A stretch of DNA of 64,000 bases, taken from assembly GCA_045602345.1 (NCBI GenBank), contig JAZSBI010000012.1, positions 17 through 64,016 on the forward strand, read 5' to 3'. This DNA comes from Acutalibacteraceae bacterium (GTDB taxonomy: Bacteria > Bacillota > Clostridia > Oscillospirales > Acutalibacteraceae). The position numbers were made by a program, and so were the translations under genes. The notes beneath the pieces were generated by a model. That model had not been told where the DNA came from and did no database searches. It saw nothing but the letters and a program-made list of their open reading frames with translations. Of this stretch, positions 8,963 through 30,750 are shown in pieces (position 1 is the stretch's first letter; each line of letters starts with the position of its first letter).

Positions 8963-9058
8963 AAAATGATAAAAAAATGAGAAAAACAACGTAATTTTTG
9001 CAAAAAATATGCAATTTTTATCCAAATTTCGCTAAAAAAATTTAAAAAAACTCAAAAA
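8961..9058. other. phased A/T-tract non-coding region between terS and terL
   Basis: A5-7 or T5 runs start at 8961, 8971, 8982, 8994, 9002, 9015, 9034, 9044 and 9054. Also contains the palindrome TTTTTGCAAAAA. Confidence 0.5.
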
Positions 9059-10814: not shown

Positions 10815-12449
10815 ATGGCAACAGTACCGACACAAGAAGACATTATGAAGCAATTGCGCAAAGATGAAAAGAAAAACACTAAAAATAGCAATTATTTCAA
10901 AAATGGCGGCAAACTTTACGGCGCTGAAAGTTCTTTTTTTAGCCCGGATTTTATAGCGTCCAGTTATCACGATAAATATAAAACAATTCCGCGCAATCAG
11001 GCAGGTGCGGTATCTTGTGGAGTTTTACGCGCCATTGCTTCAAAAGCATGGATAATCAATATTTGTATAAACCATATCTGCAAAAAAGTTAAACCATTTT
11101 TCAAACAAAGCACTGACAAAAATATACGCGGTTTTATTGTTTACAAAAATAATTCAGCAAAAGACAAATACAACACAAATGACAAAGAAGCAAAAGCAAT
11201 TACAGATTTTATCTTGAAAACGGGCAGTTACGCTGATACAGACCGCGATTCATTTGTGAAATTTGGAGCAAGGCTAGTTAGAGACCTTCTGACATTAGAC
11301 CAGATAGCAACAGAAATTCAGTACAACAAGAAAAATGAACCAGTAGCCTTTTTTGCGGTAGATTCAGCAACAATTGAAAAGGTTTTGCATGATGATACAA
11401 CAAAAGACGAATCAGAAGAAGATAAAGACGTTAAATATATTCAGGTTATCAACGGAATTGTAACGGCTGCTTATAAAAGCGATGAAATGCTTTTTGATTA
11501 TGAAAATCCTAGAACTGACATTTATCATTCACAGTACGGCTATTCATATGTTGAGCAGGCTGTAGACCTTGTAGCAACAGTTATTAACGCATTTATGTAC
11601 AATGCCGGAAACTTTACAGAAAACAAACTTCCAAAAGGAATGCTGCTTATTAATGGCGATGCTTCTCAAGATGTAGTTGACGAAATGACTGACTATATCG
11701 CAGAGATTTTAAGCGGTTCTCCACTCAATCAGTGGAGAATTCCAGTTATACCGTCAGGCAGCAAAGATGCAACAATCGAGTGGAAACAATTAAACGGCAA
11801 TAACCGTGAAATGGAATTTCAGGGTTTTATGGACTATCTGACAAGTGCCGTTGTAGCAATGTTTGGCTGTTCTATGGATGAATTGGGCTTACAATCACAG
11901 AAGTCACAGAATCTTTTTGAATCATCAGGAAATGCAAAAATTCAAGCGAGTAAATCTCTTGTTTTAGGTGACGTTCTTTCATTCTTTGAAGACTATATAA
12001 ACAAAATCGTTGAAAAGATAAATCCAGAATACAAATTTGAATTCGTCGGATATGAAAAAGACGACCCTTCAACAGTAGCAGACTTAGACGAAAAAGAATG
12101 CAGAACATGGAAAAGCGTAAATGAAAAACGTATTGAAAAAGGCTTAAAACCAATCAATCTTAAAGATATTAAAAATGGTGCTGACATTCCTATGAATGTT
12201 CAGTTAGTTCAGCTTTTACAATCTCAAATGGCGCAGGGCGGCATGGGTGATGGCGGTATGGATATGGGCGGCAATGGCGGCGGCGATGATGAATCATGGC
12301 AGGACTATTCTGACATTCAGACCGGCGATGAAAACTTTGAGAATCCAGAAGAAAATGAACCGGATAACACAGAACCAACAGACGGCATTGAAAAGTCACT
12401 TTCTTTCATAAACAAAAACAAAGCTACAAAGAAGCTTTTTGTAATTTAA
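10815..12449 (+). CDS. portal protein
   Basis: 544 aa, immediately after TerL, with an acidic G/D/E-rich C-terminus. GGGAGG SD upstream. Confidence 0.8.
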   Translation: MATVPTQEDIMKQLRKDEKKNTKNSNYFKNGGKLYGAESSFFSPDFIASSYHDKYKTIPRNQAGAVSCGVLRAIASKAWIINICINHICKKVKPFFKQSTDKNIRGFIVYKNNSAKDKYNTNDKEAKAITDFILKTGSYADTDRDSFVKFGARLVRDLLTLDQIATEIQYNKKNEPVAFFAVDSATIEKVLHDDTTKDESEEDKDVKYIQVINGIVTAAYKSDEMLFDYENPRTDIYHSQYGYSYVEQAVDLVATVINAFMYNAGNFTENKLPKGMLLINGDASQDVVDEMTDYIAEILSGSPLNQWRIPVIPSGSKDATIEWKQLNGNNREMEFQGFMDYLTSAVVAMFGCSMDELGLQSQKSQNLFESSGNAKIQASKSLVLGDVLSFFEDYINKIVEKINPEYKFEFVGYEKDDPSTVADLDEKECRTWKSVNEKRIEKGLKPINLKDIKNGADIPMNVQLVQLLQSQMAQGGMGDGGMDMGGNGGGDDESWQDYSDIQTGDENFENPEENEPDNTEPTDGIEKSLSFINKNKATKKLFVI

Positions 12450-12459
12450 CAGGCGGTAA

Positions 12460-13156
12460 ATGTACATGGATTTGCTACATGGTAATTGTTACGAGCTTAT
12501 AAAGAACCTGCCTGATAAAAGCATTGATGTTTGCATAACAGATCCGCCGTATCTGTTCAAAGAATCGGGGGGGGGGTATTATGAGAAAGCGTGATTATAC
12601 AAATCAATTAGCTGATTTGAATTGCTGCAATTTCAACCCGTCTGTTTTTCTGGATGCAATACACAGCAAGCTTAAAAAGACATATATTTATGCTTTTTGT
12701 AACAAATCATTGGTTTCTGAATACATTTCTTGGGCGCAAAAACACAAATGTAATTACGACATTCTTGTAATGTGCAAATCAAATCCAATACCGGCATACA
12801 ACAATCATTACTTGAGTGACTTTGAATACATAATAGTCATACGTGAACCGGGAACATATTTTTGCAAAGAGAAGGATATAGAGCTTTATAGAAAATGGTT
12901 TATGACTTCATGCAAAAAGGGCCTGCATCCAGCTGAAAAGCCGGTTACGCTGCTTGAGAAGTTTATAAAAGTATCTTGCCCGGATAACGGGACTGTTTTA
13001 GACCCGTTTATGGGTAGTGGCTCAACAGGTGTTGCTTGTGTAAGAACGAAGCGCAATTTTATCGGAATTGAGATAGACGAAAAATATTTTAAGCTTGCAA
13101 AAGAACGTATCAACGAAGCGAAAAATGAAAACATACTTTTTGATATGGCGGTGTAA
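12460..13156 (+). pseudogene. N4/N6 DNA methyltransferase (DPPY...FxGSGST type) interrupted by a frameshift at a G10 tract; phase-variable or homopolymer error
   Basis: 12460-12594 encodes MYMDLLHGNCYELIKNLPDKSIDVCITDPPYLFKESGGG then stops. The +1 frame (track ORF 12581..13156) carries LDPFMGSGSTGVACVRTKRNFIGIEIDEKYF. G9 would fuse the two parts. Confidence 0.75.
12567..12576 (+). repeat. G10 homopolymer inside the methyltransferase gene
   Basis: Counted directly: g at 12567-12576. Confidence 0.95.
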
Positions 13157-14071
13157 ATGAAAAGATACGGAACGCCATATATGGGCAGCAAAAATCAAAT
13201 AGCTGAATGGGTTTATTCACACTTTCCGAAAGCAACAAACTTTTATGATTTGTTTGCCGGTGGATGTGCTATAACGCATATCGCGCTTGAAAAGGGCGAA
13301 TTTAAGAATTACATATGCAATGACATTGACAATGGCGGCATAAGGCTTTTTGTTGATGCAGTAAACGGCAAGTTTGCAGATGAAACGCGCTGGATAAGCC
13401 GACAGGATTTTTTCAGGTTGAAAGATAAAGACCCGTATGTTCGTTTTTGTTGGAGTTTCGGCAACAATGGCCGCGATTATCTTTATTCAAAGCAAAGCGA
13501 ACCATATAAAAAAGCTGTCCATTGTGCAGTCTGTCAGAATGATTTTTCTTTTGCTGAAAGTTTGGGGCTGAATCTTAAAAGCATTGAACCGCTACAAGGA
13601 ATTCGCAACAGATACAGCGCTGTAAAACTGTTGCTGAAAGAAAGCCGCGTACTGAATATAGAACGCCAACAATCTTTGCAATCTTTGCAATCTTTGCAAG
13701 CTTTGCAAGCTTTACAGTCTTTGCAACAAGACTATTCACAGGTAGAAATTCAGCCTGATTCTGTTATTTATTGTGATTTACCATATAAAGACACAAACGG
13801 ATATGGCAAGGCAAAGAAAAATTCTTTCGATTTCGAGCGTTTTTATTCTTGGGCACTGGAACAAAAAGAATTGTTGATAATATCAGAATATCAAATGCCT
13901 TTAGGCTTTGTTTGCATAGATGAAATTGAAAAAAAAGTGACAATGAACAGCGACACGGTTACTAAAAGAATTGAAAGAATTTTTATCCCGAAGCAGCAGA
14001 TTGAAATGTATGCAAAGAGAATGAATACACTGAAAAAACAGCTTGAATTTAATTTTTGCGAGGTAGCATAG
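13157..14071 (+). CDS. Dam-like (D12 class) N6-adenine DNA methyltransferase
   Basis: Contains N-terminal YMGSKNQIAEWV, DLFAGGCAIT (AdoMet site) and YCDLPY (DPPY-type). Confidence 0.8.
   Translation: MKRYGTPYMGSKNQIAEWVYSHFPKATNFYDLFAGGCAITHIALEKGEFKNYICNDIDNGGIRLFVDAVNGKFADETRWISRQDFFRLKDKDPYVRFCWSFGNNGRDYLYSKQSEPYKKAVHCAVCQNDFSFAESLGLNLKSIEPLQGIRNRYSAVKLLLKESRVLNIERQQSLQSLQSLQALQALQSLQQDYSQVEIQPDSVIYCDLPYKDTNGYGKAKKNSFDFERFYSWALEQKELLIISEYQMPLGFVCIDEIEKKVTMNSDTVTKRIERIFIPKQQIEMYAKRMNTLKKQLEFNFCEVA
13670..13723 (+). repeat. in-frame 9-bp tandem repeat x6 (CAATCTTTG-like) encoding (QSL/QAL)n
   Basis: caatctttg x3, caagctttg, caagcttta, cagtctttg. Protein sequence QSLQSLQSLQALQALQSL. Confidence 0.9.
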
Positions 14072-17623: not shown

Positions 17624-17673
17624 TAAAAAAAAATAACTTTAGAAGTTTGCAACCGGGCGTTTGTTGATTTTTA

Positions 17674-17765
17674 GTGACAAAACAGAACTATCTTTGTTAT
17701 AATAGACTAGATTTGTTCTGCAAGAGCAGTCTTAAAACTTTGTTTTCAGGCTGCTCTTTTTTTTT
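17674..17765 (+). promoter_or_regulatory. promoter plus leader hairpin plus overlapping terminator, copy B
   Basis: GTGACA-18-TATAAT. Hairpin 17714-17728 (TGTTCT-GCA-AGAGCA). Terminator arms 17723-17732/17748-17757, then T9. Confidence 0.7.
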
Positions 17766-21645: not shown

Positions 21646-21736
21646 TCGACAACAAAAATGAAATAAGCTATAATTACAGCATGATTTGTCTTGCAAAGAC
21701 AGTCTAACTTTGATTAGTTCAGACTGTCTTTTTTTT
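21646..21736 (+). promoter_or_regulatory. promoter plus leader hairpin plus overlapping terminator, copy C
   Basis: TCGACA-17-TATAAT. Perfect hairpin 21687-21701 (TGTCTT-GCA-AAGACA). Perfect 10-bp terminator stem 21696-21705/21721-21730, then T8. Confidence 0.75.
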
Positions 21737-28889: not shown

Positions 28890-29288
28890 TTATAACGCCA
28901 AAAAAGGACGGTTAAAAACTTTCTGCAATTTATAAAGCGTTTCTAAAGTTGGGTTTGTTTTGCGAGGGTTCTCTAATCGCTGATATTGTTGATAAGTCAT
29001 TCCGGCTTTTTCAGCAATATCTTTTTGTGATTTTCCAGCGCGTGCTTTTCTTAGCTCAATGGCAAAAGCAACTTTCGGAGAAACTTCAACAGGATAACCA
29101 CCGGTATATTTTGAAGGGGGAATTGGGAAACCTTTTTCAATATCAACAGACAGAACGCCGTCAAGTGCATCTTTTGCCATTTCTAAGGCTTCTTCTAAAG
29201 AATAACCGTAAGTAAGAACATTTGTCATGTCAGGGAACTGTGCAATAAATTTACCGTCTTTTTCCGTTATATCGCAGTTGTAAATCAT
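28890..29288 (-). CDS. hicB: HicB-family antitoxin with C-terminal HTH
   Basis: The N-terminus MIYNCDITEKDGKFIAQFPDMTNVLTYGYSLEEALEMAKDAL and an XRE-type HTH (SQKDIAEKAGMTYQQYQRLE). Overlaps hicA by 4 nt. Confidence 0.85.
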   Translation of the reverse strand: MIYNCDITEKDGKFIAQFPDMTNVLTYGYSLEEALEMAKDALDGVLSVDIEKGFPIPPSKYTGGYPVEVSPKVAFAIELRKARAGKSQKDIAEKAGMTYQQYQRLENPRKTNPTLETLYKLQKVFNRPFLAL

Positions 29289-29506
29289 TTTTGTTTCTCC
29301 TTTAATGTCTTTGGGTCTATATTTGCTTGTTTCAAAATATCTTTTGCAAAATCGCCAAGATCATCATCTTTCCCTTTATGGAATGGAACAGGCACAGGAC
29401 GTGCAAAACCTTCTTTTACAAAGATATGGTGAGAGCTGTTTATTCTATTCAACTTCCAACCGTTCTTTTTTAGTATTTTCATTAATTGTTTTGCCGTCAT
29501 TCCCAT
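29285..29506 (-). CDS. hicA: HicA-family mRNA interferase toxin
   Basis: Contains MTAKQLMKILKKNGWKLNRINSSHHIFVKEG...VPFHKGKDDDLGDFAKDILKQANI. The start is set at the internal Met (29506), directly downstream of the promoter. Confidence 0.8.
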   Translation of the reverse strand: MGMTAKQLMKILKKNGWKLNRINSSHHIFVKEGFARPVPVPFHKGKDDDLGDFAKDILKQANIDPKTLKEKQK

Positions 29507-29512
29507 ATCAAT

Positions 29513-29541
29513 AACATACAACATATATACTGTATTGTCAA
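29513..29541 (-). promoter_or_regulatory. hicAB promoter (possibly leaderless)
   Basis: Minus strand TTGACA-17-TATGTT. The A of ATG 29506 is the 7th nt after the -10. Confidence 0.5.
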
Positions 29542-29629
29542 TGATAATAATTTTCAAAAAACTCTATCTGACACCAACGCCGATAGTTAAATAATTGTAT
29601 TTATAATTACGTAAACAAAGATAAAATAC

Positions 29630-29657
29630 TTGAAAAATCCGCAAATAAAGATATAAT
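29630..29657 (+). promoter_or_regulatory. promoter of the paralog pair (possibly leaderless)
   Basis: TTGAAA-16-TATAAT. ATG 29665 is the 8th nt after the -10, and there is no SD. Confidence 0.45.
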
Positions 29658-29664
29658 GACACTT

Positions 29665-30204
29665 ATGAACGGTTCATCTAACGCCGCTACAAGTGGTATT
29701 CCAAAAAGCAAACTGAGGCAGCTGAAAAGGGCAGATTTTATAGTCGAAAACAATCTTCCTCCAGGCAACGCTATGCCGTCTATTACCGAAAACGAAGACG
29801 GTTCGCTCAATATAACATCATCTAGAATTGTTGATGGTAGTGATTATTGGGCAGGTGCTAAATTTCTGATGAAAAGAGGCGAATTCTTCATTCTTCGGGC
29901 GGAAAGAATCGATTCTGTGTTCGGAATGGTTGACTGGTGGCACAGAAACAATGACAGAGATTATATTCAGATTACGTCTGACGGCGAAGGTACTCTTAGA
30001 GGTAATGCAACTTTTACAGATGCAAAACAGGCTATTGTAATGACACAGGCCTGTCTGCCTGATGAAACGGAAAAAGAAATACATATCAGATTCGGTATAA
30101 ATGAAGGTACTACAGCCCCCGGAATTTATGGTCTTGAAGTATACATAGGAAATATAAGAGACCTTTGCAATGTTGCAAACGTCTTCAAACGAAAGGCGGT
30201 GTAA
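29665..30204 (+). CDS. hypothetical protein, paralog A of a two-gene family
   Basis: In frame with track ORF 29656. The C-terminal half aligns loosely with 30250..30750 (for example GLEVYIGNIRDLCNVANVFKRKAV versus GVTMYKVKTRKLFDALGLFRRESV). Confidence 0.6.
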   Translation: MNGSSNAATSGIPKSKLRQLKRADFIVENNLPPGNAMPSITENEDGSLNITSSRIVDGSDYWAGAKFLMKRGEFFILRAERIDSVFGMVDWWHRNNDRDYIQITSDGEGTLRGNATFTDAKQAIVMTQACLPDETEKEIHIRFGINEGTTAPGIYGLEVYIGNIRDLCNVANVFKRKAV

Positions 30205-30205
30205 G

Positions 30206-30750
30206 ATGGTAGGACGAACAAATGTTTCTGTAAACAGAATGGGGGGGGGGTGTTAGTTAAGGTTAACGCTTCCGGCATTGACCTTAGCAACAACGAAAAC
30301 GGCGGTTTTGGTTGGGGCGGAGATAATGCAGGTGCTTCTTATGCCGTCAGAGAGCCGCTTTCTGTAAGGGATAATGCGGACGGCACGGTCGATATATTGT
30401 CGGCTTATCAAGACCCCACTGGTTTCAGGCATCCATATTTTGCGGTGCATTGCAACGGCGATGAAACATTCCTGATGCATATAAGAAGCATGAAAGTGAA
30501 CACCTATATAGACTGGAACAGAAACGATGTGGCGATGGTTTCCTCTCCATTTGCGCTAAACGCAACTTTAGCGCAGGCGCAGAAAGTCATTGTTGTAAAG
30601 CCGACTTTTGACGTAGCAAATTATGAAGTCAAAATAAGCTTTGGCGCGAGAGGTGTGGACGACGCAGGGCTTTTCGGCGTTACGATGTACAAGGTTAAGA
30701 CACGCAAACTGTTTGACGCTCTGGGGCTTTTTAGGCGTGAATCTGTATAA
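30206..30750 (+). pseudogene. paralog B, reading frame broken at a 5' G10 tract (phase-variable candidate)
   Basis: ATG 30206 lies 2 nt after the upstream stop and encodes MVGRTNVSVNRMGGGC*. G11 would join it to the long frame (track ORF 30250..30750). Confidence 0.6.
30241..30250 (+). repeat. G10 homopolymer
   Basis: Counted directly: g at 30241-30250. Confidence 0.95.

Follow-up and report, generated by a model that had tools for sequence, protein, structure and literature searches.

A poly-G tract that splits an orphan phage DNA methyltransferase gene is a probable slipped-strand switch

Introduction

Genes that are switched by changes in the length of simple sequence repeats have been described in bacteria and in phages. 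The phase-variable bacterial methyltransferases include type III mod, type I hsd and type IIG enzymes such as C. jejuni cj0031 (PMC4889913, PMC13076061), and PMC3401435 gives about 9–10 residues as the typical length of a poly-G tract. In phage T2, slippage in a poly-A tract of agt, the gene of a DNA glucosyltransferase, produces reversible null mutants (bioRxiv 10.1101/2025.10.21.683753; Gomez, Barrick and Waters). These mutants escape the modification-dependent system TgvAB and become sensitive to McrA/BC, and revertants of the tract are about 1000-fold more frequent than those of a point mutant (bioRxiv 10.1101/2025.10.21.683753). Poly-G tracts have also been found in Campylobacter phages (Sorensen et al. 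2021, Cell Rep 35:109214, as cited in PMC12823448 and PMC10877375). Here we describe a run of ten G residues (G10) that divides the gene of a predicted DNA methyltransferase (methylase) in a 64,000-nucleotide stretch of contig JAZSBI010000012.1. This stretch, referred to below as the window, comes from an uncultured phage.

The locus resembles agt of phages T2 and T4 in that a homopolymer lies within a phage DNA-modification gene, the gain or loss of one nucleotide gives null alleles, and a hedge between opposite defences is proposed. Unlike agt, which has a poly-A run of 6–9 and encodes a glucosyltransferase, the gene described here has a poly-G run of 7–10 and is predicted to encode an S-adenosylmethionine (AdoMet)-dependent beta-class methyltransferase; it also belongs to an uncultured, apparently temperate phage from a metagenome, in which natural variants point to switching. 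As far as the two citing articles describe the Campylobacter phages, the common features are a small number of long poly-G tracts per genome, their location inside coding regions and the existence of ON and OFF subpopulations. The phage of the window is unrelated to the Campylobacter phages, the best match of its major capsid protein among cultured phages being 30% identical. In the Campylobacter phages the tracts are reportedly located in receptor-binding and other host-range genes. With the phase-variable bacterial methylases the gene shares a simple sequence repeat in its 5′ part, slippage of which turns methylation across the genome ON and OFF in the bacterial systems; unlike them, it is a small (about 230 amino acids) orphan of the beta class, encoded by a phage between portal and head-associated genes. 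The closest solved structure, M1.HpyAVI of Helicobacter pylori (PDB 5hek/5hfj), is similar in size and also has DPPY followed by FxGxG, but it is distant in sequence and has no GGG motif at the aligned position, and its target specificity is not transferable. The locus works like the bacterial phase-variable methylases and the recently described phage contingency loci, both of which are known. No phage-encoded orphan methylase switched by poly-G was found in the literature searched, the coverage of which was incomplete and did not extend to the Campylobacter phage study.

Results

Inspection of the sequence located a run of exactly ten G residues, tract 1, within the methylase gene (Table 1). 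The frame that starts at the ATG at 12460 reads MYMDLLHGNCYELIKNLPDKSIDVCITDPPYLFKESGGGYYEKA* and ends at a TGA (12592–12594), and the open reading frame (ORF) downstream, which contains FMGSGSTG, is in the +1 frame. Removal of one G (G9) joins both parts into a protein of 231 amino acids, or of 229 amino acids if translation starts at the ATG at 12466. This repaired protein matched the complete Pfam profile PF01555, N6_N4_Mtase (profile positions 1–221 of 221, residues 22–215, E value 2.6e-29), with a score of 103.2 bits against a cut-off of 26.7, and its residues 4–218 were aligned to the beta-class adenine methylase M1.HpyAVI (5hek, E value 2e-24). The order of its motifs, DPPY at residues 28–31 followed by FMGSGSTG at residues 183–190, is that of the beta class. 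The repaired protein is therefore a predicted enzyme of the beta-class N6/N4 DNA methyltransferases. Since the frameshift separates the catalytic motif IV (DPPY) from all remaining motifs, the product of 42–44 amino acids is not an enzyme. A preliminary description of the locus, made from the nucleotide sequence, had stated that the G10 run divides a methyltransferase into DPPY and AdoMet-binding halves and that a G9 run restores an enzyme of about 231 amino acids, and the coordinates, frames and profile match bore out both statements. It had also placed the start at ATG 12460. The frame and the stop were correct, but the spacing of the Shine–Dalgarno-like AGGCGG (12452–12457) suits ATG 12466 (MDLLHG..., 229 amino acids) better, and the gene of the relatives is called from the equivalent codon.

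The homopolymer occupies approximately codons 36–39 of 231, i.e., it lies in the 5′ coding region, where a change in its length shifts the frame. Runs of G6, G9 or G12 are in frame (ON), and the G10 allele of the window is out of frame (OFF). The Gly-Gly-Gly that the tract encodes after DPPY is a conserved motif in the protein alignment of the family.

Table 1. Coordinates of the two poly-G tracts and of the genes around them in the window
Feature	Position	Strand	Remarks
Poly-G tract 1 (G10), encodes Gly-Gly-Gly after DPPY, OFF	12567–12576	+	Run length; variants G7–G10 in relatives
Methylase N-terminal fragment (motif IV, DPPY), 44 amino acids from ATG 12460 or 42 from ATG 12466	12460–12594	+	
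Methylase remainder, +1 frame (target-recognition region, HPAEKP, motif I FMGSGSTG), ORF from ATG 12581 (to 13156), 191 amino acids	12577–13156	+	
Poly-G tract 2 (G10), OFF; G11 or G8 in frame	30241–30250	+	
Gene 2, conserved 5′ leader (MVGRTNVSVNRMGGGC*), cut by the tract 2 frameshift	30206–30256	+	Homologues P0128, L049
Gene 2, body (ORF of 166 amino acids)	30250–30750	+	All-beta model, moderate confidence
Paralogue upstream of gene 2, 182 amino acids, 26% identity, without poly-G tract	29656–30204	+	
Portal protein gene, directly upstream of the methylase; sets it in a late/head operon	10815–12449	+	PF04860
Second methylase, adjoining, D12 class PF02086, in-frame 9-bp repeat (CAATCTTTG)x6.3 at 13670–13726	13157–14071	+	

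The window was compared with 11 related contigs (L014–L024), 94–99% identical to it and assembled from metagenomes of other samples; the names XIEF21 and WILK20 suggest the ruminant gut as the source. The preliminary description had proposed a comparison of tract lengths in related genomes, and runs of 7, 8, 9 and 10 G were found, in intact as well as in broken genes (Table 2). All close relatives have the tract; its absence from homologues would, according to that description, have spoken against a switch. At the protein level, a cluster at 90% identity contained three intact forms (229, 230 and 231 amino acids) and three distinct truncated forms of 191 amino acids, one of them that of the window. 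A distance matrix over 1.1 kb separated the window and its relatives into two clades. The clade of the window (window, L014, L023 and L024) has four different tract configurations in sequences 11–16 substitutions apart. Two haplotypes make up the other clade; both are identical across several datasets and pipelines and have G9 in every copy. The same haplotype gave G9 in six datasets, which comprise assemblies from NCBI and ENA (contigs with k141 names, XIEF21 scaffolds) and from Logan; the nine-G run is thus recovered consistently by independent assemblies. In the three OFF genomes the downstream frame of 191 amino acids is open, with few substitutions between them. Public gut metagenomes thus contain ON and OFF alleles of different tract length whose backgrounds are nearly the same. 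The exact flank of tract 1 had no match in IMG/VR, and a scan of Joint Genome Institute (JGI) metagenomes gave just one contig, which was already in the set.

Table 2. Length of tracts 1 and 2 and state of the respective gene in the window and its relatives
Sequence	Source	Tract	Gene
L014	SRR29277930	Tract 1, AATTT-G8	Intact (ON)
L015–L022 (eight contigs)	Several datasets	Tract 1, AATT-G9	Intact (ON)
L023	SRR29277962	Tract 1, AATC-G8	Broken (OFF)
L024	SRR29277928	Tract 1, AATC-G7	Broken (OFF)
Window	NCBI record	Tract 1, AATC-G10	Broken (OFF)
L046		Tract 2, G9	OFF
L047 (allele of 67% protein identity, different flanks)		Tract 2, G10	ON
L048		Tract 2, G10	OFF
L049		Tract 2, G11	ON
L050		Tract 2, G8	OFF; gene call starts at a TTG just past the tract
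L051		Contig end falls inside tract 2	

Taken together, the G10 run is probably a genuine hypermutable contingency locus, a slipped-strand switch of an orphan phage methylase of which the window carries the OFF allele. Slipped-strand mispairing at replication would add or remove G residues. The G9 allele would then yield the full enzyme of 229–231 amino acids, and with G7, G8 or G10 translation would stop a few codons past DPPY, so that no protein would contain both DPPY and motif I. Changes in the tract would presumably arise by slippage at high and reversible rates within populations. The length variants, the reproducible G9 and a second tract that needs a correction of opposite sign, described below, support the phase-variable methylase that had been put forward as a candidate in the preliminary description.

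The composition of the window does not account for such a run. Its G+C content is 38%, and it has only two runs of at least six G or C, both of them exactly G10. Two G10 runs compare with an expectation of 0.02, and none of 100 shuffles that preserved the dinucleotides reached two. GGG is the rarest of the glycine codons in the genes of the window (85 of 1235, 6.9%), and the two tracts, when in frame, contain two and three successive GGG codons, each run being lengthened by flanking G residues. In a 63%-identical homologue, present in ten contigs, the codons of this Gly-Gly-Gly are GGT GGT GGA, with no homopolymer, and in another homologue they are GGT GGA GGG. Since these homologues use other codons, the protein sequence does not force the homopolymer. 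The tract is not due to chance, and the repeat is over-represented with respect to both composition and codon usage.

The other G10 run, tract 2, interrupts gene 2, which encodes about 180 amino acids. The frame from the ATG at 30206 is cut at the tract, and the ORF of 166 amino acids is in the −1 frame relative to this leader; a run of G11 or G8 would fuse both. An in-frame length of G9, in the same direction as in the methylase, was considered and rejected, as the ATG at 30206 leads to G11 or G8. The fused reading was confirmed by the intact homologues P0128 and L049, of 179 amino acids, which begin MTGRTN(V/A)S...GGG. Tract 2 would be a second, independent poly-G switch that toggles gene 2. 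The two tracts assume their states independently: the methylase/gene 2 pair is OFF/OFF in the window, ON/ON in JAEEGH010001126 and ON/OFF in SRR29277930_11607, each combination being present on a single contig. No Pfam or PHROG family matched gene 2. Its AlphaFold model is all-beta (pLDDT 60.6), and a fold search with the model found no match below an E value of 0.03 in PDB or BFVD.

If the sequences at both tracts were the product of sequencing or assembly errors, the true sequence would be G9 at tract 1 and G11 at tract 2, and the genes would be intact; for tract 1, homopolymer sequencing error had been named as the alternative in the preliminary description. Several platforms are error-prone on long G runs, both long G runs of this record are out of frame, and contig L051 ends within tract 2 and others end near the tracts, a sign that assemblers struggle there. 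Nonetheless, the corrections needed have opposite signs (−1 G at tract 1 and +1 G at tract 2), as would not be expected if G residues were consistently called in excess or in deficit. Furthermore, G9 was obtained from identical haplotypes in six datasets and several pipelines, two further independent assemblies of the sub-lineage of the window are also out of frame with different lengths (G7 and G8), and DRR855074 independently shows the same G10 at tract 2. A census of indels between the window and its relatives (145 kb aligned) found uncompensated indels of 1–2 nucleotides inside genes at the two poly-G tracts only. The other small indels were located in A/T runs outside predicted plus-strand ORFs (8978, 9071, 17625, 17757, 19206 and 21729), were in-frame events of 3 nucleotides, or were events of 1–2 nucleotides paired or clustered in locally divergent stretches. 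The A8/T8 runs within genes of the window are in frame without exception. Since the indels are confined to poly-G and the genic A8/T8 runs are in frame, the assembly is not generally prone to homopolymer error, and error as the origin of the two OFF alleles of the window is unlikely.

The A/T homopolymers outside the predicted plus-strand ORFs (17625–17633, 17757–17765 and 21729–21736, and those at 8978, 9071 and 19206) differ by 1–2 nucleotides (A8/A9, T7/T8/T9) between the sequences compared. They may be terminator or promoter-spacer runs, in which such differences could modulate expression.

Several points weigh against the switch. Metagenome assemblers can miscall long homopolymers. The eight G9 contigs represent two haplotypes, which reduces the independent observations of the ON state to three including L014. 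Heterogeneity in length within a sample and reversibility are read from natural variants between assemblies, which makes both of them presumptive; for switching within a clonal population, the end of contig L051 inside tract 2 is no more than a weak hint. The fitness trade-off is conjectural. Mixed-technology contigs in IMG/VR, discussed below, make their high fraction of OFF alleles less than clean evidence. Finally, all three alleles with a TC border are OFF, and this could reflect decay of the gene in that sub-lineage.

According to this last view, the tract is a mutational hot spot and an accessory methylase is being lost by irreversible pseudogenisation in the sub-lineage of the window, with no adaptive role. 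The other clade is uniformly ON, and accessory methylases of phages are often dispensable. A gene in decay is difficult to reconcile with the downstream frames of 191 amino acids, still open and with few substitutions in the three OFF genomes, or with the ON state of the clade-mate L014. Every lineage has kept a run of 7–10 G, composed of the rare GGG codon, and a poly-G run occupies the same motif in L073, which is 54% identical. Tract 2 has been retained across alleles of 67% identity with different flanks, and the leader of 12 amino acids of gene 2 is kept even in OFF alleles. Irreversible decay is, on this evidence, an improbable explanation.

Recoding, in which a programmed +1 ribosomal frameshift or slippage of the RNA polymerase yields the full-length enzyme from the G10 allele and leaves the gene ON or leaky, is very improbable: G10 lets tRNA-Gly re-pair in any frame, homopolymers of at least nine can cause transcriptional slippage, and the overlap of the stop of the first ORF (12592–12594) with the second ORF, whose ATG is at 12581, makes re-initiation with synthesis of a C-terminal fragment conceivable, but such a fragment, lacking DPPY, is not catalytic according to what is known of the family (PF01555 and 5hek), neither a stop nor a rare codon occupies the A site where the ribosome would slip, a stimulatory element was not found, the gene is in frame in most relatives, and the shifts needed differ in sign and size (G7, G8 and G10 versus G9), so that there is no conserved recoding signal, i.e., no slippery site with the same shift in all relatives.

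The design of the proposed switch recurs in other viral methylases. IMG/VR was scanned for GATCCNCCNTAY followed, after 9–21 nucleotides, by G8 or longer, the hits were translated, and repaired proteins were checked against Pfam; because the search pattern biases this sample, in which sequencing technologies are mixed, it informs on recurrence and not on frequency. The scan gave 36 contigs (L068–L103) with runs of G8–G17 (G17 in L078), four of which were rejected because they do not encode methylases. The contigs comprise at least four methylase lineages and include intact as well as frameshifted copies. L073 belongs to the family of the window methylase (54% identity) and has G10 at the same motif, in the OFF state. 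A second family of 230 amino acids is ON with G8 in L079, L088 and L102, and OFF in L080 (G8 with one border base fewer) and L087 (G9). Fusions of ParB with a methylase are ON in L071 and L086 (G10) and OFF in L095 (G9) and L100 (G8), and several members of a family with FYNMDC...DPPYG look OFF. A different PF01555 methylase has the poly-G run right before motif I (VLDPFMGAGSTG); it is OFF with G11 in IMGVR_UViG_3300033463_000143 (L011:3640) and ON with G10 in RUG12586, a metagenome-assembled genome (MAG) of Erysipelotrichaceae (L040:10633). In all, at least four or five lineages from IMG/VR and MAGs show the poly-G design.

Other runs were observed in or near related genes. An in-frame G10 that encodes GGG was found in a Pradoshia sp. 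MAG (L041:9429), in the gene just upstream of a homologue of the PF01555 methylase. A 64%-identical homologue on a contig of SRR17418354 (L057:3990–4005) is split just after a GGG motif that is not a homopolymer (GGT GGA GGG); the break, within an A7 run (GCAAAAAAATAA) or immediately upstream of it, could be an error or a homopolymer break of another type. The truncated homologue P0115 was considered as a further poly-G split and rejected, as its break is at an A run. A G7 run is present in a C5-cytosine methylase gene (PF00145) beside the P0008 methylase in six of ten loci (L058–L061, L064 and L067; e.g., L058:3308). In each of the eight loci that contain the complete gene, it was called with 217 amino acids, which indicates that the run is apparently in frame.

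Tract 1 is located in a bona fide phage genome. The genes of the window named so far are all on the plus strand, and its phage genes encode the small and large terminase subunits, portal, head protease, major head protein and tail fibre. A CI-like repressor is carried by relatives, and the uncultured phage of the window shows signs of being temperate. The gene order is portal, methylase, D12-class methylase, HAD-like protein and InPase-MuF protein; further downstream, the relatives have zeta-toxin and HD proteins and an Eco57I-type methylase/SNF2 helicase of 2100–2650 amino acids. No restriction endonuclease, hsd or res partner was found among the neighbours, hence the methylase is an orphan.

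In the adjacent D12-class gene, the 9-bp repeat (CAATCTTTG)x6.3 is translated into (QSL)n, which separates the AdoMet-binding region from the DLPY region. In L021 the array comprises at least 14 perfect units and is interrupted by a scaffold gap, and L017, L019 and L023 end inside the repeat; the number of repeats of this methylase may therefore vary. A cargo region of about 22 kb (14444–36327) separates the portal and methylase genes from the head protease gene. Its products include the InPase-MuF protein (1059 amino acids), a methylase/SNF2-helicase (2361 amino acids), a protein of 587 amino acids and zeta-toxin/kinase-like proteins, and their lengths diverge strongly among relatives (e.g., 979–1131 and 1554–2650 amino acids). 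LPD3 and/or ddrB-ParB domains are present in the counterparts in relatives (L048–L050). Domains of this kind characterise 'polyvalent' proteins, which are presumably packaged or injected. A HicA/HicB toxin–antitoxin pair is encoded on the minus strand (28890–29557), between the gene of the giant helicase and the paralogues of gene 2; its HicB is 100% conserved in nine contigs. No tRNA genes were found in the window.

A search for cultured phages found no close relative of the window; one patch of 123 nucleotides is 79% identical to Lactococcus phage LW81. Among the proteins of cultured phages the best matches of the methylase are at most 41% identical, the value for the major capsid protein being that given above. 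GTDB representative genomes contain relatives of the methylase only, at most 37% identical. For the large terminase subunit (TerL), all taxonomically named homologues are proteins of Treponema/Spirochaetia MAGs (about 51% identity), a weak hint at a host in this group.

Discussion

The location of the methylase bears on the role that the switch could have. A phasevarion, in which a phase-variable methyltransferase controls a regulon of the host, is associated with type III, type I or type IIG restriction-modification loci; the neighbours found here are the portal, D12 methylase, HAD-like and InPase-MuF genes. In the preliminary description the locus had been compared to a phasevarion. The phase-variable methylase in that comparison is supported, and control of a host regulon is not, the gene being an orphan, type II-like one in a late portal/head operon. 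The late operon is predicted to place expression at the time of progeny-DNA modification rather than regulation of the lysogen, and would argue against expression in lysogens. Protection of progeny DNA is the likelier function when compared with control of a host regulon.

The benefit of a slipped-strand switch in such a gene would be bet-hedging. Methylated progeny would escape restriction-modification systems that cut unmethylated DNA, and unmethylated progeny would escape methylation-dependent (type IV-like) restriction or avoid the cost of the enzyme. We tentatively extend this proposal, as a possibility that falls short of being probable, to a convergent and widespread switch of phage PF01555 methylases, in which poly-G placed on Gly-Gly-Gly after DPPY, or before motif I, hedges methylation-sensitive against methylation-dependent defences; in the phage described here it may be paired with the second poly-G gene to give up to four genotype classes per burst.

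Annotation pipelines split or drop genes of this kind, and three 191-amino acid "proteins" in public databases are examples. Orphan phage methylases are usually viewed as a fixed anti-restriction armour. If the switch is real, a single phage lineage would release both methylated and unmethylated progeny and would thereby counter hosts with classical restriction-modification as well as with methylation-dependent nucleases. That viral methylases unrelated to each other share the design suggests that this may be a general rule.

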